A stretch of 64,000 nt of DNA, from assembly GCA_018060985.1 (NCBI GenBank), contig JAGOUZ010000003.1:47356-111355 (forward strand). Direction: 5' to 3'. The DNA comes from Minisyncoccota bacterium (GTDB lineage: Bacteria > Patescibacteriota > Minisyncoccia > Phycocordibacterales > SBAW01). A program made the translations under genes and the position numbers. The notes below the pieces were generated by a model. That model made no database searches and was not told the origin of the DNA. It saw only the letters and a program-made list of their open reading frames with translations. Shown in pieces: positions 6,426-24,727 of the stretch; the first letter of the stretch is position 1, and every line of letters begins with the position of its first letter.

Positions 6426-6805
6426 CCGACCCTATCGCAGACTTTTTGGTTCGCTTGAGAAACGCGGGAATGACCGGCAAAGAGTTTGTCGTAATACCTG
6501 CATCTAAGATGACGACCGCCCTCGCAAACCTTCTTGAGAAAGAGGGTTATGTGAAGGAAGTTTCTAAACAAAAGAAGAATAATTCCTTTACGATTACGCT
6601 CGCCTACAAAAATGGCCGCCCGGTTATCACCGGCTCAAAGCGCATTTCAAAGCCATCACGCCGCATGTACATGGGTGTACGCGAAGTACGTCCGGTTAAG
6701 CGCGGTCACGGTCTTTTGGTCCTCTCGACGCCGGCTGGCGTTTTGACCGGCAAAGAGGCTCGCGAAAAGCGTGTCGGTGGAGAAGCCCTGTTCGAAATTT
6801 GGTAA
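6419..6805 (+). CDS. rpsH: 30S ribosomal protein S8
   Basis: [16 protein letters not shown]... S8. Confidence 0.95.
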
Positions 6806-6809
6806 TTAT

Positions 6810-7343
6810 ATGTCACGTCTTGCTAAACGCCCCATCGTTATACCTGCCAAAACCGAGATAACCGTTAAGAACGGTGAAATCGAGGTTAAGGGCCCAAAGG
6901 CCACGCTTACTCGCGAGGGTAATCGTCTTATTGCTGTTGAAGTAGGTGCAGAAGGCGTACAGGTTTCAACTAAGTCAGATACGCTCGAGGCAAAGGCATT
7001 GCTCGGCACCTACGCCTCCCACATCCGCAACATGATTGAGGGCGTTACCAACGGCTTTGTTAAGAAGCTTCTCATTGAGGGCGTTGGCTACAAGTGGGAT
7101 GTTCAGGGCAAGACGCTCAACCTCGCACTTGGTTTTTCTCACCCGGTTAAAGTAGCAATCCCTGAAGGTCTTACCGTAACAATCGAAAAGGGAGTACTTT
7201 CAATTGCCGGCCCAAATAAAGAAATCGTCGGTCAGTTTGCAGCAAATATCCGTGCACTCAAAAAGCCTGAGCCGTACAAGGGCAAGGGTATCCGCTTTGA
7301 GGGTGAGGTTATCCGCCGCAAGCAGGGTAAGAAAGCCGCATAA
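6810..7343 (+). CDS. rplF: 50S ribosomal protein L6
   Basis: L6 two-domain sequence; start at ATG 6810 (MSRLAKRPIVIP) after the rpsH stop. Confidence 0.95.
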   Translation: MSRLAKRPIVIPAKTEITVKNGEIEVKGPKATLTREGNRLIAVEVGAEGVQVSTKSDTLEAKALLGTYASHIRNMIEGVTNGFVKKLLIEGVGYKWDVQGKTLNLALGFSHPVKVAIPEGLTVTIEKGVLSIAGPNKEIVGQFAANIRALKKPEPYKGKGIRFEGEVIRRKQGKKAA

Positions 7344-16165: not shown

Positions 16166-16335
16166 AGCTATAGTGACAAGACTATACCAACAAAAGCCGC
16201 TTTTGGCAATTTAGACCCTTTTCACCCCTTAAGCGGCACTGGGACGTTCTCTTTACTTTCATACTCCTTTTACTACTATGGGCCTTCGCCAAGGGCCGCG
16301 GTGGCTTTTGGTATTGAGTACAAGGAGAGTTCTTA

Positions 16336-16706
16336 TGAACGTTCGTAAAATGCTGATCGGCGCCGTGACTGCGGTAGCCACGATCGTTGCCGCTTCGACC
16401 GCATCTATCTCCGTTTCGGAAGCGAAACCGCTTTTCGCCAATGGGATCCACTTCCTCGGTAGCAAAGCGCCCAAGCCAGGCGCTACCCTGAAGTTCGGCT
16501 GTCCTGGAGTAGCGCTCGCCACCGGTGTCGTGAGTGACCGGCGGCATGCCATTGTCAACGGCGTGCAAGGGGGTGCCGTGTGCATTGCCGCGGTTTCGGC
16601 CGGAGCAATGCTCGGCGGCCCTGCGGGGGCTCTCGTGGGCGGTCTTGCTGCGGGCGTCATCGCGCCGGTGATCGCCGCTGGTCAGAAGCGCCGGCTGCAG
16701 CAATAG
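16336..16706 (+). CDS. small secreted/membrane glycine-zipper protein (hypothetical)
   Basis: Signal-peptide-like N-terminus then GGPAGALVGGLAAGVIAPVIAAG; GGAGAG RBS; the opposite-strand Arg-rich ORF looks like an antisense artefact. Confidence 0.5.
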
Positions 16707-16741
16707 CATTCCGGGTGTGTCTCTTGCGAGAGACGTCGTCA

Positions 16742-16785
16742 AAGGGTCGCGGACAAGAATATCCGCGGCCCTTTTTATTTTTTAT
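16742..16785 (+). terminator. intrinsic terminator
   Basis: AGGGTCGCGG...CCGCGGCCCT hairpin followed by TTTTTATTTTTT. Confidence 0.55.
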
Positions 16786-16944: not shown

Positions 16945-17283
16945 ATGCGTATCATGAGTAACGTGTTGTTGGCAGTGTTGCCGCTTGTTGTGGCAACGCC
17001 AGCATTGGCGCTCAAGACCAGTTGGTATGAGTGCTGCAACCCCAAGACCGCTTACGGATATCCGTTTAGCGCGAATGACAAACACATTGCCGCATCCAAG
17101 AAGTTGGCCTATGGCACCAGGATCCTCCTTTCCTACAAGGGGAAGACGCTCTGCGTCACCGTGCGCGACAAGGGGCCATTCGTCGGTAACAGGGAGCTCG
17201 ACATCACCCGCGCCGGCGCCGAACATCTTGGCATGAAGAAGGCTGGCGTCGTCGACCTCCAGGCAAAAATCAACGGCTGCTAA
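16945..17283 (+). CDS. RlpA-like double-psi beta-barrel (DPBB) lipoprotein
   Basis: Signal peptide; SWYECCNP...AYGTRILLSYKGKTLCVTVRDKGPF...DITRAGAEHLG pattern of RlpA/3D-domain proteins. Confidence 0.75.
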   Translation: MRIMSNVLLAVLPLVVATPALALKTSWYECCNPKTAYGYPFSANDKHIAASKKLAYGTRILLSYKGKTLCVTVRDKGPFVGNRELDITRAGAEHLGMKKAGVVDLQAKINGC

Positions 17284-17331: not shown

Positions 17332-17349
17332 AATTGTGGAAGTGGGCGG

Positions 17350-17512
17350 GTTCAGTCACGAATAAACTTTTGTCGTCACAAAAGTTTTTCGCGACCCCGG
17401 CTCGCGGTTTTGCAATTGCAAAACATCGCTGCGCCCGTTCAACTCCGACGGCCGTGCCGGCCTTCTCACAGAAAATAAAAATAACCCTGCACAAGGCAGG
17501 GCATTTTTATTT
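17350..17512 (-). mobile_element. miniature insertion at the 3' end of ssrA (copy 1), flanked by direct repeats of the ssrA 3' terminus
   Basis: GTGGAAGTGGGCGG at 17336-17349 repeats 17515-17528 (ssrA acceptor/T-stem); the segment between carries a terminator hairpin, an inverted copy of the ssrA T-arm (17445-17460) and a multi-hairpin core with perfect palindrome TTTTGCAATTGCAAAA (17408-17423). Confidence 0.4.
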
Positions 17513-17890
17513 TGGTGGAAGTGGGCGGAGTTGAACCGCCGTGCAACACAAAAACTCAAAACATATCTACGAGAGGTAGACTACTTTAATTTCTTAGGCT
17601 CAATTGTAGAAAGTAGACAAAATAGGATTGAGTCGCAGCCTCTTAGTCTCAACTACAGAGCAAGACAGACTCTGTAGTCATAGCCCGTTATATAACACCC
17701 GCACCCAGAGCCGGGCTCGCTGGGGCAGACGTGACCTTAGGCGCGCGCAGTGGCGAACGAAAGATCATTCACCGAGAAATACGGTGACGTAACTGATTTT
17801 GCAGTTATGGTTTGAAGTTTTTTATAGCAGATCTCCACTGCTCTCCCGCATGTAATGCGAATATATGTATTGTCTAAGCCTGTCACTCCC
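17513..17890 (-). ncRNA. ssrA: tmRNA (SsrA), 378 nt
   Basis: Minus strand: 5' GGGAGUG pairs with 3' CACUUCC-A-CCA including G3:U70; T-arm GGCGG-UUCAACU-CCGCC (same loop as E. coli tmRNA); encoded CCA; intrinsic terminator immediately downstream; internal ORF GCA...UAA (plus coords 17802-17737) gives tag AKSVTSPYFSVNDLSFATARA; same strand as and downstream of smpB. Confidence 0.75.
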
Positions 17891-17932
17891 CAGCAGGGCG
17901 CGAGTGTCGTGCACTGGTGGGGAAGGCCTAGC

Positions 17933-17951
17933 GTCCATCGCTTGAATGTGG
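17933..17951. repeat. right arm of 19-bp inverted repeat bracketing the small acidic-protein gene
   Basis: GTCCATCGCTTGAATGTGG pairs with 18218-18236 (1 mismatch). Confidence 0.5.
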
Positions 17952-17980
17952 GGGTGACAACCGTAGTTGTCACCCATACC

Positions 17981-18199
17981 TCACCGGAAGATTTTGGTGA
18001 GGGGTTGTGGTTTGCCGGCCGGTTCCTGGCCGTACTGCTCGTACATCTGGTTAGCGAGCGGTTCGTAGTCGTGGTCGAGCATTCCGTCACCTCCGTCGAA
18101 GTCATCGAGGGAGATAGGGGATGCCTGCAGCCGTTCTCCTTCGGTAAAGGAGCGCTGGCTGGGGGGAAGACGTACGAGCTTCGCTCTTTTTGTGGTCAT
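17981..18199 (-). CDS. hypothetical small acidic protein (72 aa)
   Basis: MTTKRAKLVRLPPSQRSF...DDFDGGDGMLDHDYEPLANQMYEQYGQEP; AGGAGA SD 6 nt upstream of the ATG; G/C-rich codon third positions. Confidence 0.5.
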   Translation of the reverse strand: MTTKRAKLVRLPPSQRSFTEGERLQASPISLDDFDGGDGMLDHDYEPLANQMYEQYGQEPAGKPQPLTKIFR

Positions 18200-18217
18200 T
18201 GATTTCTCCTCTGCTGG

Positions 18218-18236
18218 CCACATTCAAACGATGGAC
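18218..18236. repeat. left arm of 19-bp inverted repeat
   Basis: CCACATTCAAACGATGGAC, reverse complement of 17933-17951; lies in the 5' UTR just upstream of the SD. Confidence 0.5.
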
Positions 18237-18294
18237 TCTGAACAAGTGCCGAAATGTGGGGCGAAGTCTCGTAAGGCTTCGCCAATCGTAGTTT

Positions 18295-18684
18295 CTACCT
18301 CCGCCCCTCAAGGATGTGGGGGTAGTAATGAGGTGGCTTAACCCACTCAGCGTCCTCGAAGTCTTCCTCCGAAGAATCTTCTGCCGGTGAGACCTCGGAC
18401 CCGTCGAGGATCACGCCGAACTCGTCGAACTCGACGACCTCGTCCTCCAGGCACTGGCCGTCGGAGCCGCAGTGGCACACCGCCCTCGAGCCGTTTCCGT
18501 CGTGGGCTTTTGTAAACCTCTTGTGACGGTCTTTTGGGTTGGCGTGGCACCCGCGGAGCTTTTTGCGTTGCTCTGCTGCTTCGCGCCGCCGCTCTTTTTG
18601 GTGTTCTTTTTGCCGTAGCCGAGCCTCTTCAGCCCGCAACTCTTCTGAGGTCGGACTACTGTATCTACTAAAGCTAAAAGGCAT
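18295..18684 (-). CDS. hypothetical protein: basic N-terminus, Cys/His cluster, acidic C-terminus (129 aa)
   Basis: MPFSFSRYSS...CHANPKDRHKRFTKAHDGNGSRAVCHCGSDGQC...EDSSEEDFEDAEW; strong SD AGAGGAGGG before ATG 18684; co-oriented between smpB and ssrA. Confidence 0.55.
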   Translation of the reverse strand: MPFSFSRYSSPTSEELRAEEARLRQKEHQKERRREAAEQRKKLRGCHANPKDRHKRFTKAHDGNGSRAVCHCGSDGQCLEDEVVEFDEFGVILDGSEVSPAEDSSEEDFEDAEWVKPPHYYPHILEGRR

Positions 18685-18736: not shown

Positions 18737-19180
18737 TTATTCGTTTTTCAAAGTTCTGCGCATCTCGCGCTCAGTATCTCTTTTCTTTAAGACGGCGCGC
18801 TTGTCGAATTTCTTTCTACCGCGCGCGACTGCGATACGGAGCTTGAGAACCTTGCCTTTATTATACACCGAAAGTGGCACTATTGTCAACCCTTTCTGCC
18901 CCTCAGCATCCGAGAGGAGGCCTATTTCCTTCTTGGTTAGAAGGAGTTTGCGGCTACGGGCCGGGTCGTACTCTTTTGGTATGTTCGCCGGCTGGTAGGG
19001 GGAGATAAGCATACCCACTACAAAGGCCTCGCCGCCACGCACTATTATATGTGAACCCTCAAGTTTGCCCTGGTGGTTGCGCAAACTCTTTACCTCGTGG
19101 CCAAACAGCTCTAAACCCGCCTCGTATTCCTCGAGGATGTCGTAGTCGAACCGCGCTTTTTTGTGCTCAATTAAGTTCAC
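18737..19180 (-). CDS. smpB: SsrA-binding protein SmpB
   Basis: 147 aa, typical SmpB (FDYDILEEYEAGLELFGHEVKSLR...). Confidence 0.95.
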   Translation of the reverse strand: MNLIEHKKARFDYDILEEYEAGLELFGHEVKSLRNHQGKLEGSHIIVRGGEAFVVGMLISPYQPANIPKEYDPARSRKLLLTKKEIGLLSDAEGQKGLTIVPLSVYNKGKVLKLRIAVARGRKKFDKRAVLKKRDTEREMRRTLKNE

Positions 19181-19194
19181 AAGGCTAGGATAGC

Positions 19195-21198
19195 ATGCAG
19201 AAAACCTTTTGCCCCATAACGCAAGAATGCTATACTCTTCAACACATGCCTGACCCTAACAGGAACAGCAAAACGCCCGATGGCGGCAAGCGTCGTGGCA
19301 ACATGCCCTCTATGCCTAAGATGCCAAAGAGCGACTCATTTTGGGTCAACCTAGCCACGAGCGTGCTCGTGCTCCTTTTAATAGCCGGTGCCTACACCTA
19401 CTTTATGGGCACCACCGAAGAGGCTCCACAAGAGGTGCCGATTTCTCAGTTGGCGCAGGATATAGAGATAGGTAAAGTCGCATCTATTATTGTATCTGGC
19501 GAAGAGGTGGAGGCGACATACTCCGACCAGTCTAAAAAGAAGAGTAAAAAAGAGCCAAGTACGGCTCTCACGCAGACTTTGACCAACTACGGCGTCTCTA
19601 AGCTCGCGCTTTCTAAAGTTTCTATCGATATTAAGCGCGAGACGGGCTTCCAGTTTTGGCTGGTAACGTTGGCACCATTTTTGGCACCAATACTTCTCCT
19701 CGTCTTCTTTGTCTGGTATCTCTCGCGCCAAGTGCGCGGCGCAGGTGTTCAGGCATTTTCATTCGGTCAGAGTAAGCCACGCGTTATCGACCCCAACGAC
19801 GCAACCTCGCGCGTAACCTTTAAAGATGTTGCAGGCGCTAAGGAAGCAAAGGAAGAGCTGCTCGAGATCGTCGACTTTTTGAAGAATCCTAAAAAGTTTT
19901 TGGACATCGGCGCACGCATTCCAAAAGGCATCTTGCTTATGGGTGCACCGGGTACTGGTAAAACCATGTTGGCCCGTGCGGTCGCGGGGGAAGCAGGGGT
20001 GCCATTCTTCTCTATCTCCGGCTCGGAGTTTGTGGAGATGTTTGTGGGCGTTGGCGCATCTCGCGTGCGCGACCTCTTTTTGACTGCTAAAAAAGCAGCG
20101 CCTTCTATTATCTTCGTCGACGAAATTGATGCCGTAGGTCGCATCCGTGGTACGGGCGTAGGCGGCGGCAACGACGAGCGCGAGCAGACCCTGAACCAGA
20201 TTCTTGTCGAGATGGACGGCTTTGAGCCGAACGAGAAAGTGATTGTGATGGCTGCAACCAACCGACCGGACGTGCTCGACCCTGCACTCCTTCGCCCAGG
20301 CCGCTTTGACCGCCGCGTCACTATCGACCTACCAGACCGCCAGGACCGCCTAGAGATTTTGAAGATCCACGCACGCAAGAAACCGTTTGCCGAAGACGTT
20401 AACCTAGAAGTTATTGCCGAGCGCACGCCGGGCTTTAGTGGTGCCGACCTCTACAGCCTTATGAACGAGGGCGCTATTTTGGCCGCCCGCGAGAACCGCC
20501 GCACTATTGCGCAGTACGACCTGATCCGTTCCATAGAGAAAGTGATGCTCGGCCCTGAACGCCGCTCACATGTTTTGAATGTAAAAGAGAAAGAAATTAC
20601 GGCGTATCACGAAGCAGGCCATGCACTTGTGGCGAGCGTGCTCCCATATGCTGACCCGGTACATAAAATTTCTATTATTTCGCGCGGCCGAGCTGCGGGC
20701 TATACGCTGAAGCTCCCGTTTGAAGATAAGAAGATGCAGAGCAAACGCGAGTTCTTGGACGACATTGCCATGAGCCTTGGCGGCTATGTTGCTGAAAAGA
20801 TGGTATTTAAAGATGTAACCACTGGACCGTCGAACGACTTGCAGGTGTTGACCAGCCTCGCGCGCAGTATGGTGACCCGCTGGGGCATGAGCGACAAGAT
20901 GGGCACTATCGCACTTGAGGGTGATGGCGGCCGCGCGATGTTTGGCCGCGGCATAGAGGGGAGCGAGTATTCTGAAAAAGTGTCTTCAGAGATTGATACT
21001 GAAGTAAAGAAAATAATCGACGAAGCGTACGAAAAAGCAGAACGGATTATCACGGATCACCGCAAAGCACTTAACGCGATTGCTGAGCGCCTGGTAGAAG
21101 TGGAGACCATTGAGCGCGAGGAGTTTGAAAACTTGTTGATTGCCCACGGCATCATTCCCAAGAAAAAGCAGGACATTGAGCATCAGCCAATTGCCTAG
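19195..21198 (+). CDS. ftsH: ATP-dependent zinc metalloprotease FtsH
   Basis: Two TM segments, AAA Walker [14 protein letters not shown] zinc motif; exact start among several N-terminal Met uncertain. Confidence 0.95.
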
Positions 21199-24609: not shown

Positions 24610-24682
24610 GGGCGTGTAGCTCAGCTGGTAGAGCAGTCGACTTATACTCGACCGGTCGCAGGTTCGAACCCTGCCGCGCCCA
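24610..24682 (+). tRNA. tRNA-Ile, anticodon UAU
   Basis: Cloverleaf GGGCGUG/CGCGCCC acceptor (one G-U), anticodon loop CUUAUAC, T-loop UUCGAAC; no CCA encoded. Confidence 0.8.
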
Positions 24683-24727
24683 CAAAAGACAGAAAGACCT
24701 GCCCTGCGGCAGGTTTTCTGCTTTTGT
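24683..24727 (+). terminator. hairpin/terminator after tRNA-Ile
   Basis: CACAAAAGACAGAAAGACCUGCC-cugc-GGCAGGUUUUCUGCUUUUGUG long imperfect hairpin with U-run. Confidence 0.5.

Follow-up and report, generated by a model that had tools for sequence, protein, structure and literature searches.

The locus described here raises the question of why two small open reading frames (ORFs) lie between smpB and ssrA, the gene for transfer-messenger RNA (tmRNA), in a Minisyncoccota bacterium. The DNA analyzed is a stretch of 64,000 nucleotides (nt) from a metagenome-assembled genome of Candidatus Pacebacteria (NCBI GenBank assembly GCA_018060985.1, contig JAGOUZ010000003.1, positions 47,356 to 111,355), referred to below as the window and numbered from its first letter. 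A sequence-only reading of this DNA had placed ORF A (18684 to 18295; 129 amino acids, aa; KBD50_02015) and ORF B (18199 to 17981; 72 aa; KBD50_02010) on the minus strand between the two genes. Its coordinates are exact, and the identity of both flanks is borne out by PF01668 for smpB and by ARAGORN and Rfam for the tmRNA. For the two products it had suggested either an accessory or regulatory role or an origin as acquired cargo. Our analyses lead us to favor, with a probability of roughly 0.55, the interpretation that two tandem cassettes, similar to intervening sequences (IVSs), in the leader of the tmRNA precursor (pre-tmRNA) carry ORF A and ORF B as their cargo, and that the products of these ORFs are of a passenger or accessory nature. 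The feature that defines these cassettes, viz. long-range inverted repeats and a 3' hairpin around each ORF, did not figure in the sequence-only reading.

Organization of the Two Cassettes

The minus strand carries, in order, smpB, ORF A, ORF B, and the tmRNA gene. The smpB coding sequence (18737..19180; 147 aa), which was taken from the ORF list and matches the SmpB family PF01668 with an E-value of 1.9e-47, ends in a TAA stop codon at 18739-18737. Beginning 2 nt further on are two units that share one anatomy, viz. a left arm of about 20 nt (20-23 nt), a Shine-Dalgarno (SD) sequence, an ORF, a GC hairpin, and a right arm with which the left one can pair, and this anatomy is conserved in 14 loci. 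In cassette A, the left arm GAACAAGTGCCGAAATGTGCGGT (18734-18712) pairs with the right arm GCCCCACATTTCGGCACTTGTTC (18262-18240). In cassette B, which begins 2 nt beyond cassette A, the left arm AGTCCATCGTTTGAATGTGG (18237-18218) pairs with the right arm CCACATTCAAGCGATGGAC (17951-17933), and the one mismatch between them is a G.U pair in the sense RNA. The SD sequence of ORF A is perfect, as had been claimed (AGAGGAGGG at 18697-18689, 4 nt from the start codon), and that of ORF B is AGGAG (18210-18206), 6 nt before the start codon. The GC hairpin of cassette A, GGCGAAG-CCTTACGAGA-CTTCGCC (18260..18283), abuts its right arm, and the hairpin of cassette B, GGGTGACAAC-TACG-GTTGTCACCC (17952..17975), precedes the right arm of that unit.

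The position of the cassettes with respect to their neighbors is constant. In every relative with an arm-type insert (loci of relatives are cited here by L numbers), the left arm begins at the smpB stop codon or overlaps it, and the right arm follows the GC hairpin and sits just ahead of a conserved pre-tmRNA leader. In the window this leader, GCTAGGCCTTCCCCACCAGTGCA..., occupies 17891..17932 and is recognized from blastn alignments, from the spacers of relatives, and from predicted pairing; the alignments reach to about 17932 in L002, L006, L092, and L096. In cassette-free relatives, the leader stands directly after the smpB stop codon.

Some additional elements were noted around the frame. 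At 4-20 nt past the left arm there is a short 'anti-arm,' a CCACA-like sequence that repeats the beginning of the right arm and can pair locally with the inner end of the left arm, in at least seven loci (the window, at 18720-18701, L004, L091, L096, L012, L017, and L100), where it may act as a co-transcriptional place-holder or switch. ORF-less inserts also occur in this leader: in L092 (870-940), a palindromic one of about 70 nt separates the smpB stop codon from the left arm, and L004 (~6960-7030) and L016 (~6500-6570) have in common one of about 65 nt, GGTCACCGAAATTT...GCGCTCGACTTAGTGCCC.

Covariation and Folding of the Arms

The arms, which were located by an inverted-repeat scan, were compared in 12 cassettes from 11 loci. 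The informative part of this comparison is that the arms vary between loci yet remain complementary; the share of paired cells, 97.4%, is high partly by construction, because the arms were identified as inverted repeats. Among the pairs examined, 21 of 26 have changed on both sides (15/20 in the stem and 6/6 in the hairpin), none of 500 shuffles reaches the observed level, and registers that were slid against each other are 33-46% paired. Both stems are present in the minimum free energy (MFE) and centroid structures predicted for the 866-nt spacer, which is unusually structured (z = -8.1 vs. shuffles), and both recur in the MFE and centroid structures of the whole predicted primary transcript of 1341 nt.

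A number of points weigh against the interpretation of the ORFs as cargo of IVS-like cassettes. Apart from the constructed share of the pairing percentage, covariation of inverted repeats cannot by itself tell an RNA stem from a repeat that acts at the DNA level. A strand test of G.U against A.C mismatches, which rested on 12-14 sequences, gave 8 G.U cells and 3 C.A cells (the latter hand-counted among 8 unpaired cells), a difference that is not significant, and the pairing scores of the sense and antisense strands are nearly equal. The arms are also conserved beyond the needs of pairing, which hints at a sequence-specific partner: between L190 and L085, whose smpB genes have a nucleotide identity of 82%, the left arms do not differ at all and the right arms differ in their first base only. 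The ORF A family was seen at smpB only, in all of the loci recovered, which fits a locus-tied function as well. ORF A scores poorly in codon usage (0.018), a value that 21% of shadow ORFs equal or exceed. Lastly, no gene for RNase III (rnc) was found within the 64 kb of the window, which says nothing on the rest of the genome.

Several of these points are shared with an alternative in which the arms act at the DNA level, as terminal inverted repeats or recombination sites of a mobile cassette (MITE-like, i.e., resembling a miniature inverted-repeat transposable element, homing-type, or invertible), and in which the RNA stem is a by-product. Perfect or near-perfect inverted repeats of 19-25 nt around the ORFs speak for such an element, as does the lack of significance of the G.U excess on the sense strand. 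However, both arm repeats are unique in the window, with a chance expectation of none, and no further arm pair was found in the 946 kb formed by the window and the loci of its relatives. A scan of the whole metagenome with the arm pattern returned 105 stretches, of which just three distinct ones have a partner arm, all three of them between smpB and tmRNA. There is likewise no transposase, integrase, invertase, or other recombinase in or near the cassettes of the window or in the neighborhoods of its relatives, and all 15 cassettes, two in the window and 13 in other loci, point the same way as smpB and ssrA, with no sign of inversion. On these grounds, a MITE or other dispersed element with terminal inverted repeats was rejected, the only copies being those at the smpB-ssrA slot, where no target-site duplication is seen, and an inverton is not supported, given the single orientation of 15/15 cassettes and the absence of a recombinase from their neighborhoods.

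Empty Slots and Exchanged Cargo

Arm-type cassettes are present in 5 of the loci of 27 related species and other bracketed ORFs in 3, and in most of these genomes the slot is empty, the tmRNA starting 1-162 nt after smpB. The slot is empty even in lineages whose SmpB is 79-80% identical, where the tmRNA follows smpB at 41-61 nt. Where the arm-type frame is filled, its content differs. Relatives of ORF A occupy it in nine lineages and a short A-like core in L100; L190 carries the ORF B type alone; L017 has an acidic 67-aa ORF that is related to neither ORF A nor ORF B; and L026 (51 aa and 27 aa) and L012 (65 aa) contain ORFs with hydrophobic, membrane-like segments which are also unrelated to both. 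All of these cargo ORFs were called independently by public pipelines. The exchange is clearest between L190 and L085, whose SmpB proteins are 91% and whose tmRNAs are 88% identical, while their cargo, of the ORF B and ORF A types respectively, shows no detectable similarity.

The same slot is occupied in three relatives by ORFs within other brackets. In L019 (1312-1755), a 25-nt inverted repeat encloses an ORF that matches PF05635, the '23S rRNA intervening sequence protein' (E-value 4.6e-39), and this element forms a direct link between the smpB-ssrA slot and the IVSs of rRNA. In L003 (944-1291) and L021 (6468-6816), inverted repeats of 16-19 nt enclose GIY-YIG nucleases (PF01541, about 2e-13), and the right arm abuts or overlaps the 5' end of the tmRNA. 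The bracketing repeats of these three loci are unrelated to the arms of the window type.

These observations return us to the DNA-level alternative, which is suited by the patchy phyletic distribution, by the GIY-YIG nuclease in the slot of L003 and L021, and by cargo that is swapped between close relatives while the arms stay unchanged and more conserved than the flanking genes. Homologous recombination via the conserved smpB and ssrA flanks can nevertheless account for the exchange, and no target-site duplication is apparent at the filled vs. empty sites that were compared, so that, with the evidence on copy number, orientation, and recombinases given above, we consider action of the arms at the DNA level unlikely.

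The sequence-only reading had drawn attention to the fixed position of the two ORFs, and this part of it is confirmed: the ORF A family occurs there in every context found, ORF B does so in its one homologue (L190), and in relatives the insert ORFs recur after smpB with the tmRNA downstream. As for the two roles that it had left side by side, the evidence favors cargo, because the slot is mostly empty, because it holds unrelated ORFs elsewhere, and because its content differs even at 91% SmpB identity. A dedicated role in trans-translation is disfavored for ORF A, as is discussed below.

ORF A and Its Family

The claim that ORF A has a basic, helical N-terminus and an acidic tail holds. Residues 1-62 contain 18 K+R and 10 D+E, residues 63-129 contain 4 K+R and 18 D+E, and AlphaFold2, run with the family alignment, predicts a helix at 13-45 and a tiny beta-hairpin, with the rest disordered (mean predicted local distance difference test score 70). 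In this model the protein looks like a nucleic-acid-binding basic helix joined to an acidic disordered tail. The description of both proteins as acidic is correct in direction, but the acidity is mild, with isoelectric points of 5.7 (ORF A) and 5.2 (ORF B). The cluster of Cys and His residues is present (C46, H47, H54, H61, C70, H71, C72, and C78), but the zinc ribbon that had been suggested for it is not supported. There is no CxxC, there is no profile or fold match, and C46, H54, C70, and C78 are each absent from several members of the family, so that the full set of residues is not retained; a small metal site of irregular form is conceivable.

An exhaustive HMMER search of 1.84 billion representatives (E <= 1e-3) returned eight proteins for ORF A, viz. 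the query, six credible relatives of 104-130 aa, and one unrelated repeat protein. A profile search with a hidden Markov model added further members, which extends the family to nine distinct lineages. The relatives share an aromatic N-terminus, an Arg/Lys-rich helix, an acidic tail, and the core motif CHA(R/N)P(D/N)DHxxRF...DGxGxRAxCHxGSDGxxC-DDEV, which is written CHAxPxDxHxRF...DGxGxRAxCHxGSDGxC-DDEV for ORF A. Their gene lies 27-75 nt downstream of smpB in every locus fetched, with the tmRNA 90-180 nt beyond it wherever the contig reaches that far, and GAGGAGG motifs like the SD sequence of ORF A precede most of the homologues. Pairwise ratios of nonsynonymous to synonymous substitution (dN/dS) of 0.2-0.6, with dS saturated, indicate that the family is under purifying selection yet evolving fast. 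No curated family takes in either protein. Word-indexed protein searches with ORF A and ORF B returned the query proteins alone; neither has a match in Pfam, NCBIfam, PADLOC, PDB sequence profiles, or Foldseek; and matches in PHROGs appear only at E >= 0.1. No relatives of the ORFs were found on the viral contigs of IMG/VR, and a phage origin is without support.

Alternative starts giving proteins of 141 aa and 80 aa were considered and rejected, since neither has an SD sequence and the homologues begin at the SD-preceded codon; the start of the 141-aa form also falls inside the left arm. An annotation artefact of a similar kind was noted in L092, where the deposited start of P0003 (945) lies inside the left arm and produces a spurious N-terminus.

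The properties of this family are central to the alternative that ORF A, and perhaps ORF B, is a dedicated accessory or regulatory protein of trans-translation, co-expressed with the SmpB and tmRNA on which it acts; its basic helix, for example, might bind tmRNA or the ribosome and its acidic tail the basic C-terminal tail of SmpB. The charge-segregated architecture would suit an RNA- or protein-binding adaptor, the SD sequence is strong, and the gene is found only directly after smpB in every locus recovered, co-oriented and probably co-transcribed with smpB and ssrA. Set against this is the absence of the family from most of the close relatives, including those with 79-80% identical SmpB, the occupation of the same frame by unrelated cargo (L190, L026, L012, and L017) and of other brackets by the IVS protein S23p and GIY-YIG nucleases, and the lack of a match to any known family or fold. 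Pairs of ORF A proteins are, moreover, 26-45% identical where the corresponding SmpB pairs are 59-88% identical, and the two are weakly correlated (rho 0.33, p 0.15). Because of this patchy distribution and rapid evolution, a dedicated role of ORF A in trans-translation is disfavored, and we regard it as quite unlikely.

ORF B and the Coding Status of Both ORFs

ORF B was an orphan until L190 was brought in by the DNA-pattern scan with the arms. The 69-aa ORF in the same slot of that locus is 50-58% identical to ORF B (pairwise E-value 1.7e-17), with a dN/dS of 0.14 and nucleotide identities of 0.66/0.72/0.42 at codon positions 1/2/3. The residues shared by the two are MTT.KA.K.VRLP...EGER.QA.P.SLDD..G.DGM...AG.P.PL.KIFR, and the protein looks largely disordered. 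Descent of ORF B from a diverged copy of ORF A, or kinship with the cargo of L017, was ruled out, the 'ISLDD' that is shared being at chance level (E-value 0.16).

It may be asked whether the two ORFs are spurious and the region is a structured non-coding leader only. The unusual degree of structure of the RNA would be in keeping with this, as would the codon-usage score of ORF A, which does not set it apart from shadow ORFs, and the fact that one gene caller chose an antisense ORF of 115 aa over ORF B. However, ORF B is the best-scoring of the six frames and exceeds 97.7% of shadow ORFs, whereas the antisense ORF scores -0.12 and overlaps the 5' end of the tmRNA. The reading is contradicted by the comparative data, viz. 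dN/dS below 1 and the conservation of reading frames, SD sites, and protein motifs across lineages, and we regard it as extremely improbable; by this comparative evidence, ORF A and ORF B are real genes. The antisense ORF of the public gene caller (17855-18202, plus strand), which runs across ORF B and the 5' end of the tmRNA, is an annotation artefact. Single-nucleotide polymorphisms among three near-identical assemblies all fall outside the cassettes and are thus uninformative on selection within them.

Both ORFs had also been described as strongly enriched in G/C-ending codons relative to their neighbors. The contrast exists but is modest: the G+C content at third codon positions is 0.68 in ORF A and 0.67 in ORF B, whereas smpB has 0.615 and ftsH 0.60. 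The mean for 26 long genes of the window is 0.578 +/- 0.068, with a maximum of 0.77. Codon usage was therefore dismissed as an argument for a foreign origin, since the shift amounts to about 1.4 standard deviations and lies inside the range of the window.

A Probable Promoter Within smpB and the Proposed Mechanism

The only promoter-like site on the minus strand between 17300 and 19400 is a candidate sigma-70-type promoter, TTGACA-18 nt-TATAAT, which matches the consensus hexamers at 12/12 positions and lies inside smpB (18889..18860). Its hexamers coincide with Leu-Thr (TTG-ACA) and Tyr-Asn (TAT-AAT) codons, which show no change in 22-23 relatives, whereas synonymous sites next to them vary. 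From its sequence and conservation, the site is probably the promoter of ssrA, doubly encoded with the SmpB residues LT..YN. Downstream of this promoter, no credible terminator-like site is met before the terminator of the tmRNA, where the strand scan finds an intrinsic-terminator-like hairpin followed by a T run (17484..17502); the other hit on this strand (17787-17769) lies inside the tmRNA and has a weak T run. Given a lone promoter internal to smpB and no credible earlier terminator, the tmRNA (17513..17890; tag peptide AKSVTSPYFSVNDLSFATARA; ARAGORN; Rfam RF00023, 90.4 bits) is probably derived from a transcript that starts within smpB, and a single transcript probably runs from there through both cassettes into the tmRNA.

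With regard to the leader itself, the segment at 17891-17932 (CTAGGCCTTCCCC in this clade and CTGGCATTCG in others) is complementary to the 5' end of the tmRNA (17874-17890; GGGAGTGACAGGCTTAG or GGGGATGCCAG), and in the predicted fold of the full transcript they form a duplex, which may be a feature of precursor folding or of processing by RNase P. In L100 (4048-4072), the smpB stop codon is separated from the left arm by a terminator-like hairpin with a T run, AAAGGCGTCGCCTTTTATTT, and read-through from smpB may hence differ among lineages.

In the mechanism that we propose, the cassettes, sitting exactly between the smpB stop codon and the conserved leader, would be co-transcribed with ssrA from the promoter embedded in smpB and would in this way ride on a transcript that is needed in abundance. 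Each arm pair would close its cassette as an autonomous RNA domain and leave the folding of the pre-tmRNA undisturbed. The duplex of about 20 bp would, by analogy, be a likely substrate for a double-strand-specific RNase of the RNase III type, and a cut of this kind would free a small mRNA from the tmRNA precursor, as with the IVSs of 23S rRNA; the closing stems probably either mark the insert for double-strand-specific cleavage or shield the small mRNA. The products of ORF A and ORF B would be passenger or accessory proteins and not core parts of trans-translation.

Stems that pair the two ends of a small mRNA are also known from hok/sok, where the 5' and 3' ends are joined by a long-range fold-back (fbi), and this leads to the alternative that the cassettes are type I toxin-like modules in which the stem keeps the mRNA inactive or stable until it is processed. 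Long-range 5'-3' pairing does enclose each ORF, the cargo of L026 and L012 has hydrophobic, membrane-like segments of the kind this alternative calls for, and the anti-arm seen in at least seven loci suggests alternative folds. ORF A and ORF B themselves, however, are hydrophilic, charged, and largely disordered, their SD sequences and start codons lie outside the closing stems, and PADLOC gives no match. The plus strand within the cassettes also contains no promoter-like site from which an antisense RNA could be made, and no antisense RNA gene was detected there. We therefore consider toxin modules of this type very unlikely.

Comparison with Known Systems

Classical IVSs are bracketed by a stem and may contain an ORF; RNase III excises them, and their distribution is sporadic (PMC4990558; PMC11270868). 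The cassettes resemble the IVSs found in the 23S rRNA of Salmonella, Leptospira, and Coxiella in that an insert of 300-480 nt is placed in a highly expressed stable-RNA unit (PMC4990558). The resemblance extends to terminal inverted repeats that form a closing stem of about 20-28 bp (the arms of the cassettes measure 19-23 nt), to an optional small ORF in the loop, to a sporadic presence among relatives, and to the signature protein PF05635, which stands in the slot of one cassette relative (L019). It is because of this likeness that ORF A and ORF B are read here as the cargo of tandem IVS-like cassettes. The cassettes differ from the rRNA elements in their location, in the 5' leader and outside the mature tmRNA, and not in a helix of mature rRNA, so that excision is not needed to obtain a working tmRNA. 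They differ also in their cargo, since ORF A and ORF B do not belong to the S23p family (PF05635) and represent new families; in arms that form a conserved family tied to one site; in the covarying GC hairpin beside the right arm; and in the occurrence of two units in tandem. The cassette ORFs have strong SD sequences and are under purifying selection, whereas the S23p of Coxiella seems not to be expressed, and excision by RNase III, which is established for IVSs, would apply to the cassettes by analogy.

Other systems offer partial parallels. The processing stems of rRNA operons and the RNase III sites of phage T7 are likewise duplexes that flank units in a polycistronic precursor; they direct the endonucleolytic separation of these units. 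In the cassettes, where such a cut is a proposal, the enclosed unit is a small protein gene upstream of a tmRNA. Integron cassettes share with those described here a fixed slot by a strong promoter, promoter-less and exchangeable small ORFs, a palindromic 3' element, and the possibility of tandem arrays. Unlike integrons, the smpB-ssrA cassettes have neither an integrase nor attI/attC core sites (GTTRRRY), their repeats bracket the ORF in place of a single 3' attC, and at most two cassettes have been seen together. Genomic islands at tmRNA genes also make the ssrA locus a hot spot of variable DNA, but these islands integrate at the 3' end of ssrA via tyrosine integrases, whereas the cassettes lie 5' of the tmRNA, are smaller than 500 nt, and have no integrase.

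A more far-reaching proposal, which we put forward tentatively and as a composite whose parts are to be taken together, is that the smpB-ssrA junction of Paceibacteria could serve as a dedicated cassette platform of a hitherto undescribed type. The arms and the 3' hairpin would define a leader slot that captures small genes; lineages would exchange these genes, and the ssrA promoter would drive their expression; an RNA-processing enzyme or a recombination system would recognize the arms in a sequence-specific manner; and in at least one family of cargo, that of ORF A, evolution would have produced a protein that acts on the machinery of trans-translation or on the cassette. As a whole, this proposal represents a minority possibility.

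Other Features of the Locus

Several observations concern the surroundings of the cassettes. On the other side of smpB, ftsH diverges from it at 19195. A GC-rich patch (up to 0.66) at 16180-16750, just past the 3' side of the tmRNA, contains long overlapping ORFs on the two strands, one of 142 aa (plus) and two of 186 aa and 133 aa (minus), without a family match for any of them, and next to it lies a gene resembling RlpA/DPBB (16945-17283; E-value 3.1e-11); the patch may be island-like DNA. A tRNA-Ile gene with the anticodon TAT is located at 24610-24683, and in the window, as in most of the relatives (L004-L027), it lies within a few kb of smpB.

Downstream of the tmRNA terminator, at about 17335-17460 on the minus strand, is an element of about 115 nt that is 90% identical to positions 1815-1928 of L003, which is a higher conservation than that of the tmRNA itself. 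L007 has the element too; L004 and L006 lack it. Its predicted stems include six compensatory pairs among only three sequences, its end (GAACCCGCCCACTTCCAC) resembles the 3' end of the tmRNA, and it has no match in Rfam; it could be a non-coding RNA of a new kind or the remnant of an att site. In L027 (9340-11699), a group I intron (Rfam RF00028, 50.9 bits) splits the 16S rRNA gene. Bacteria of the Candidate Phyla Radiation (CPR) are known for carrying insertions in their stable-RNA and rRNA genes, and the intron of L027 fits this tendency.

Significance of the Proposed IVS-like Cassettes

Our literature searches turned up no account of ORFs or IVS-like inserts in the smpB-ssrA interval or, for these bacteria, of a promoter within smpB. 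What is new here is the host RNA of an IVS-like element, together with its conserved family of arms, its fixed slot, its exchangeable cargo, and two families of small proteins. If our preferred interpretation is correct, two 'hypothetical proteins' would become part of a defined genetic architecture, viz. stem-closed cassettes of exchangeable small genes on a tmRNA precursor, and the IVS phenomenon would extend from rRNA to a second stable RNA in the CPR/Patescibacteria. The two new small-protein families combine clear purifying selection with a fixed genomic address. The suggested location of the ssrA promoter within codons of smpB would matter both for annotation and for the expression of tmRNA in minimal genomes, and the compactness of the system, in which about 400 nt unite covarying arms with varied cargo, may offer a handle on how IVS-like elements function and move.

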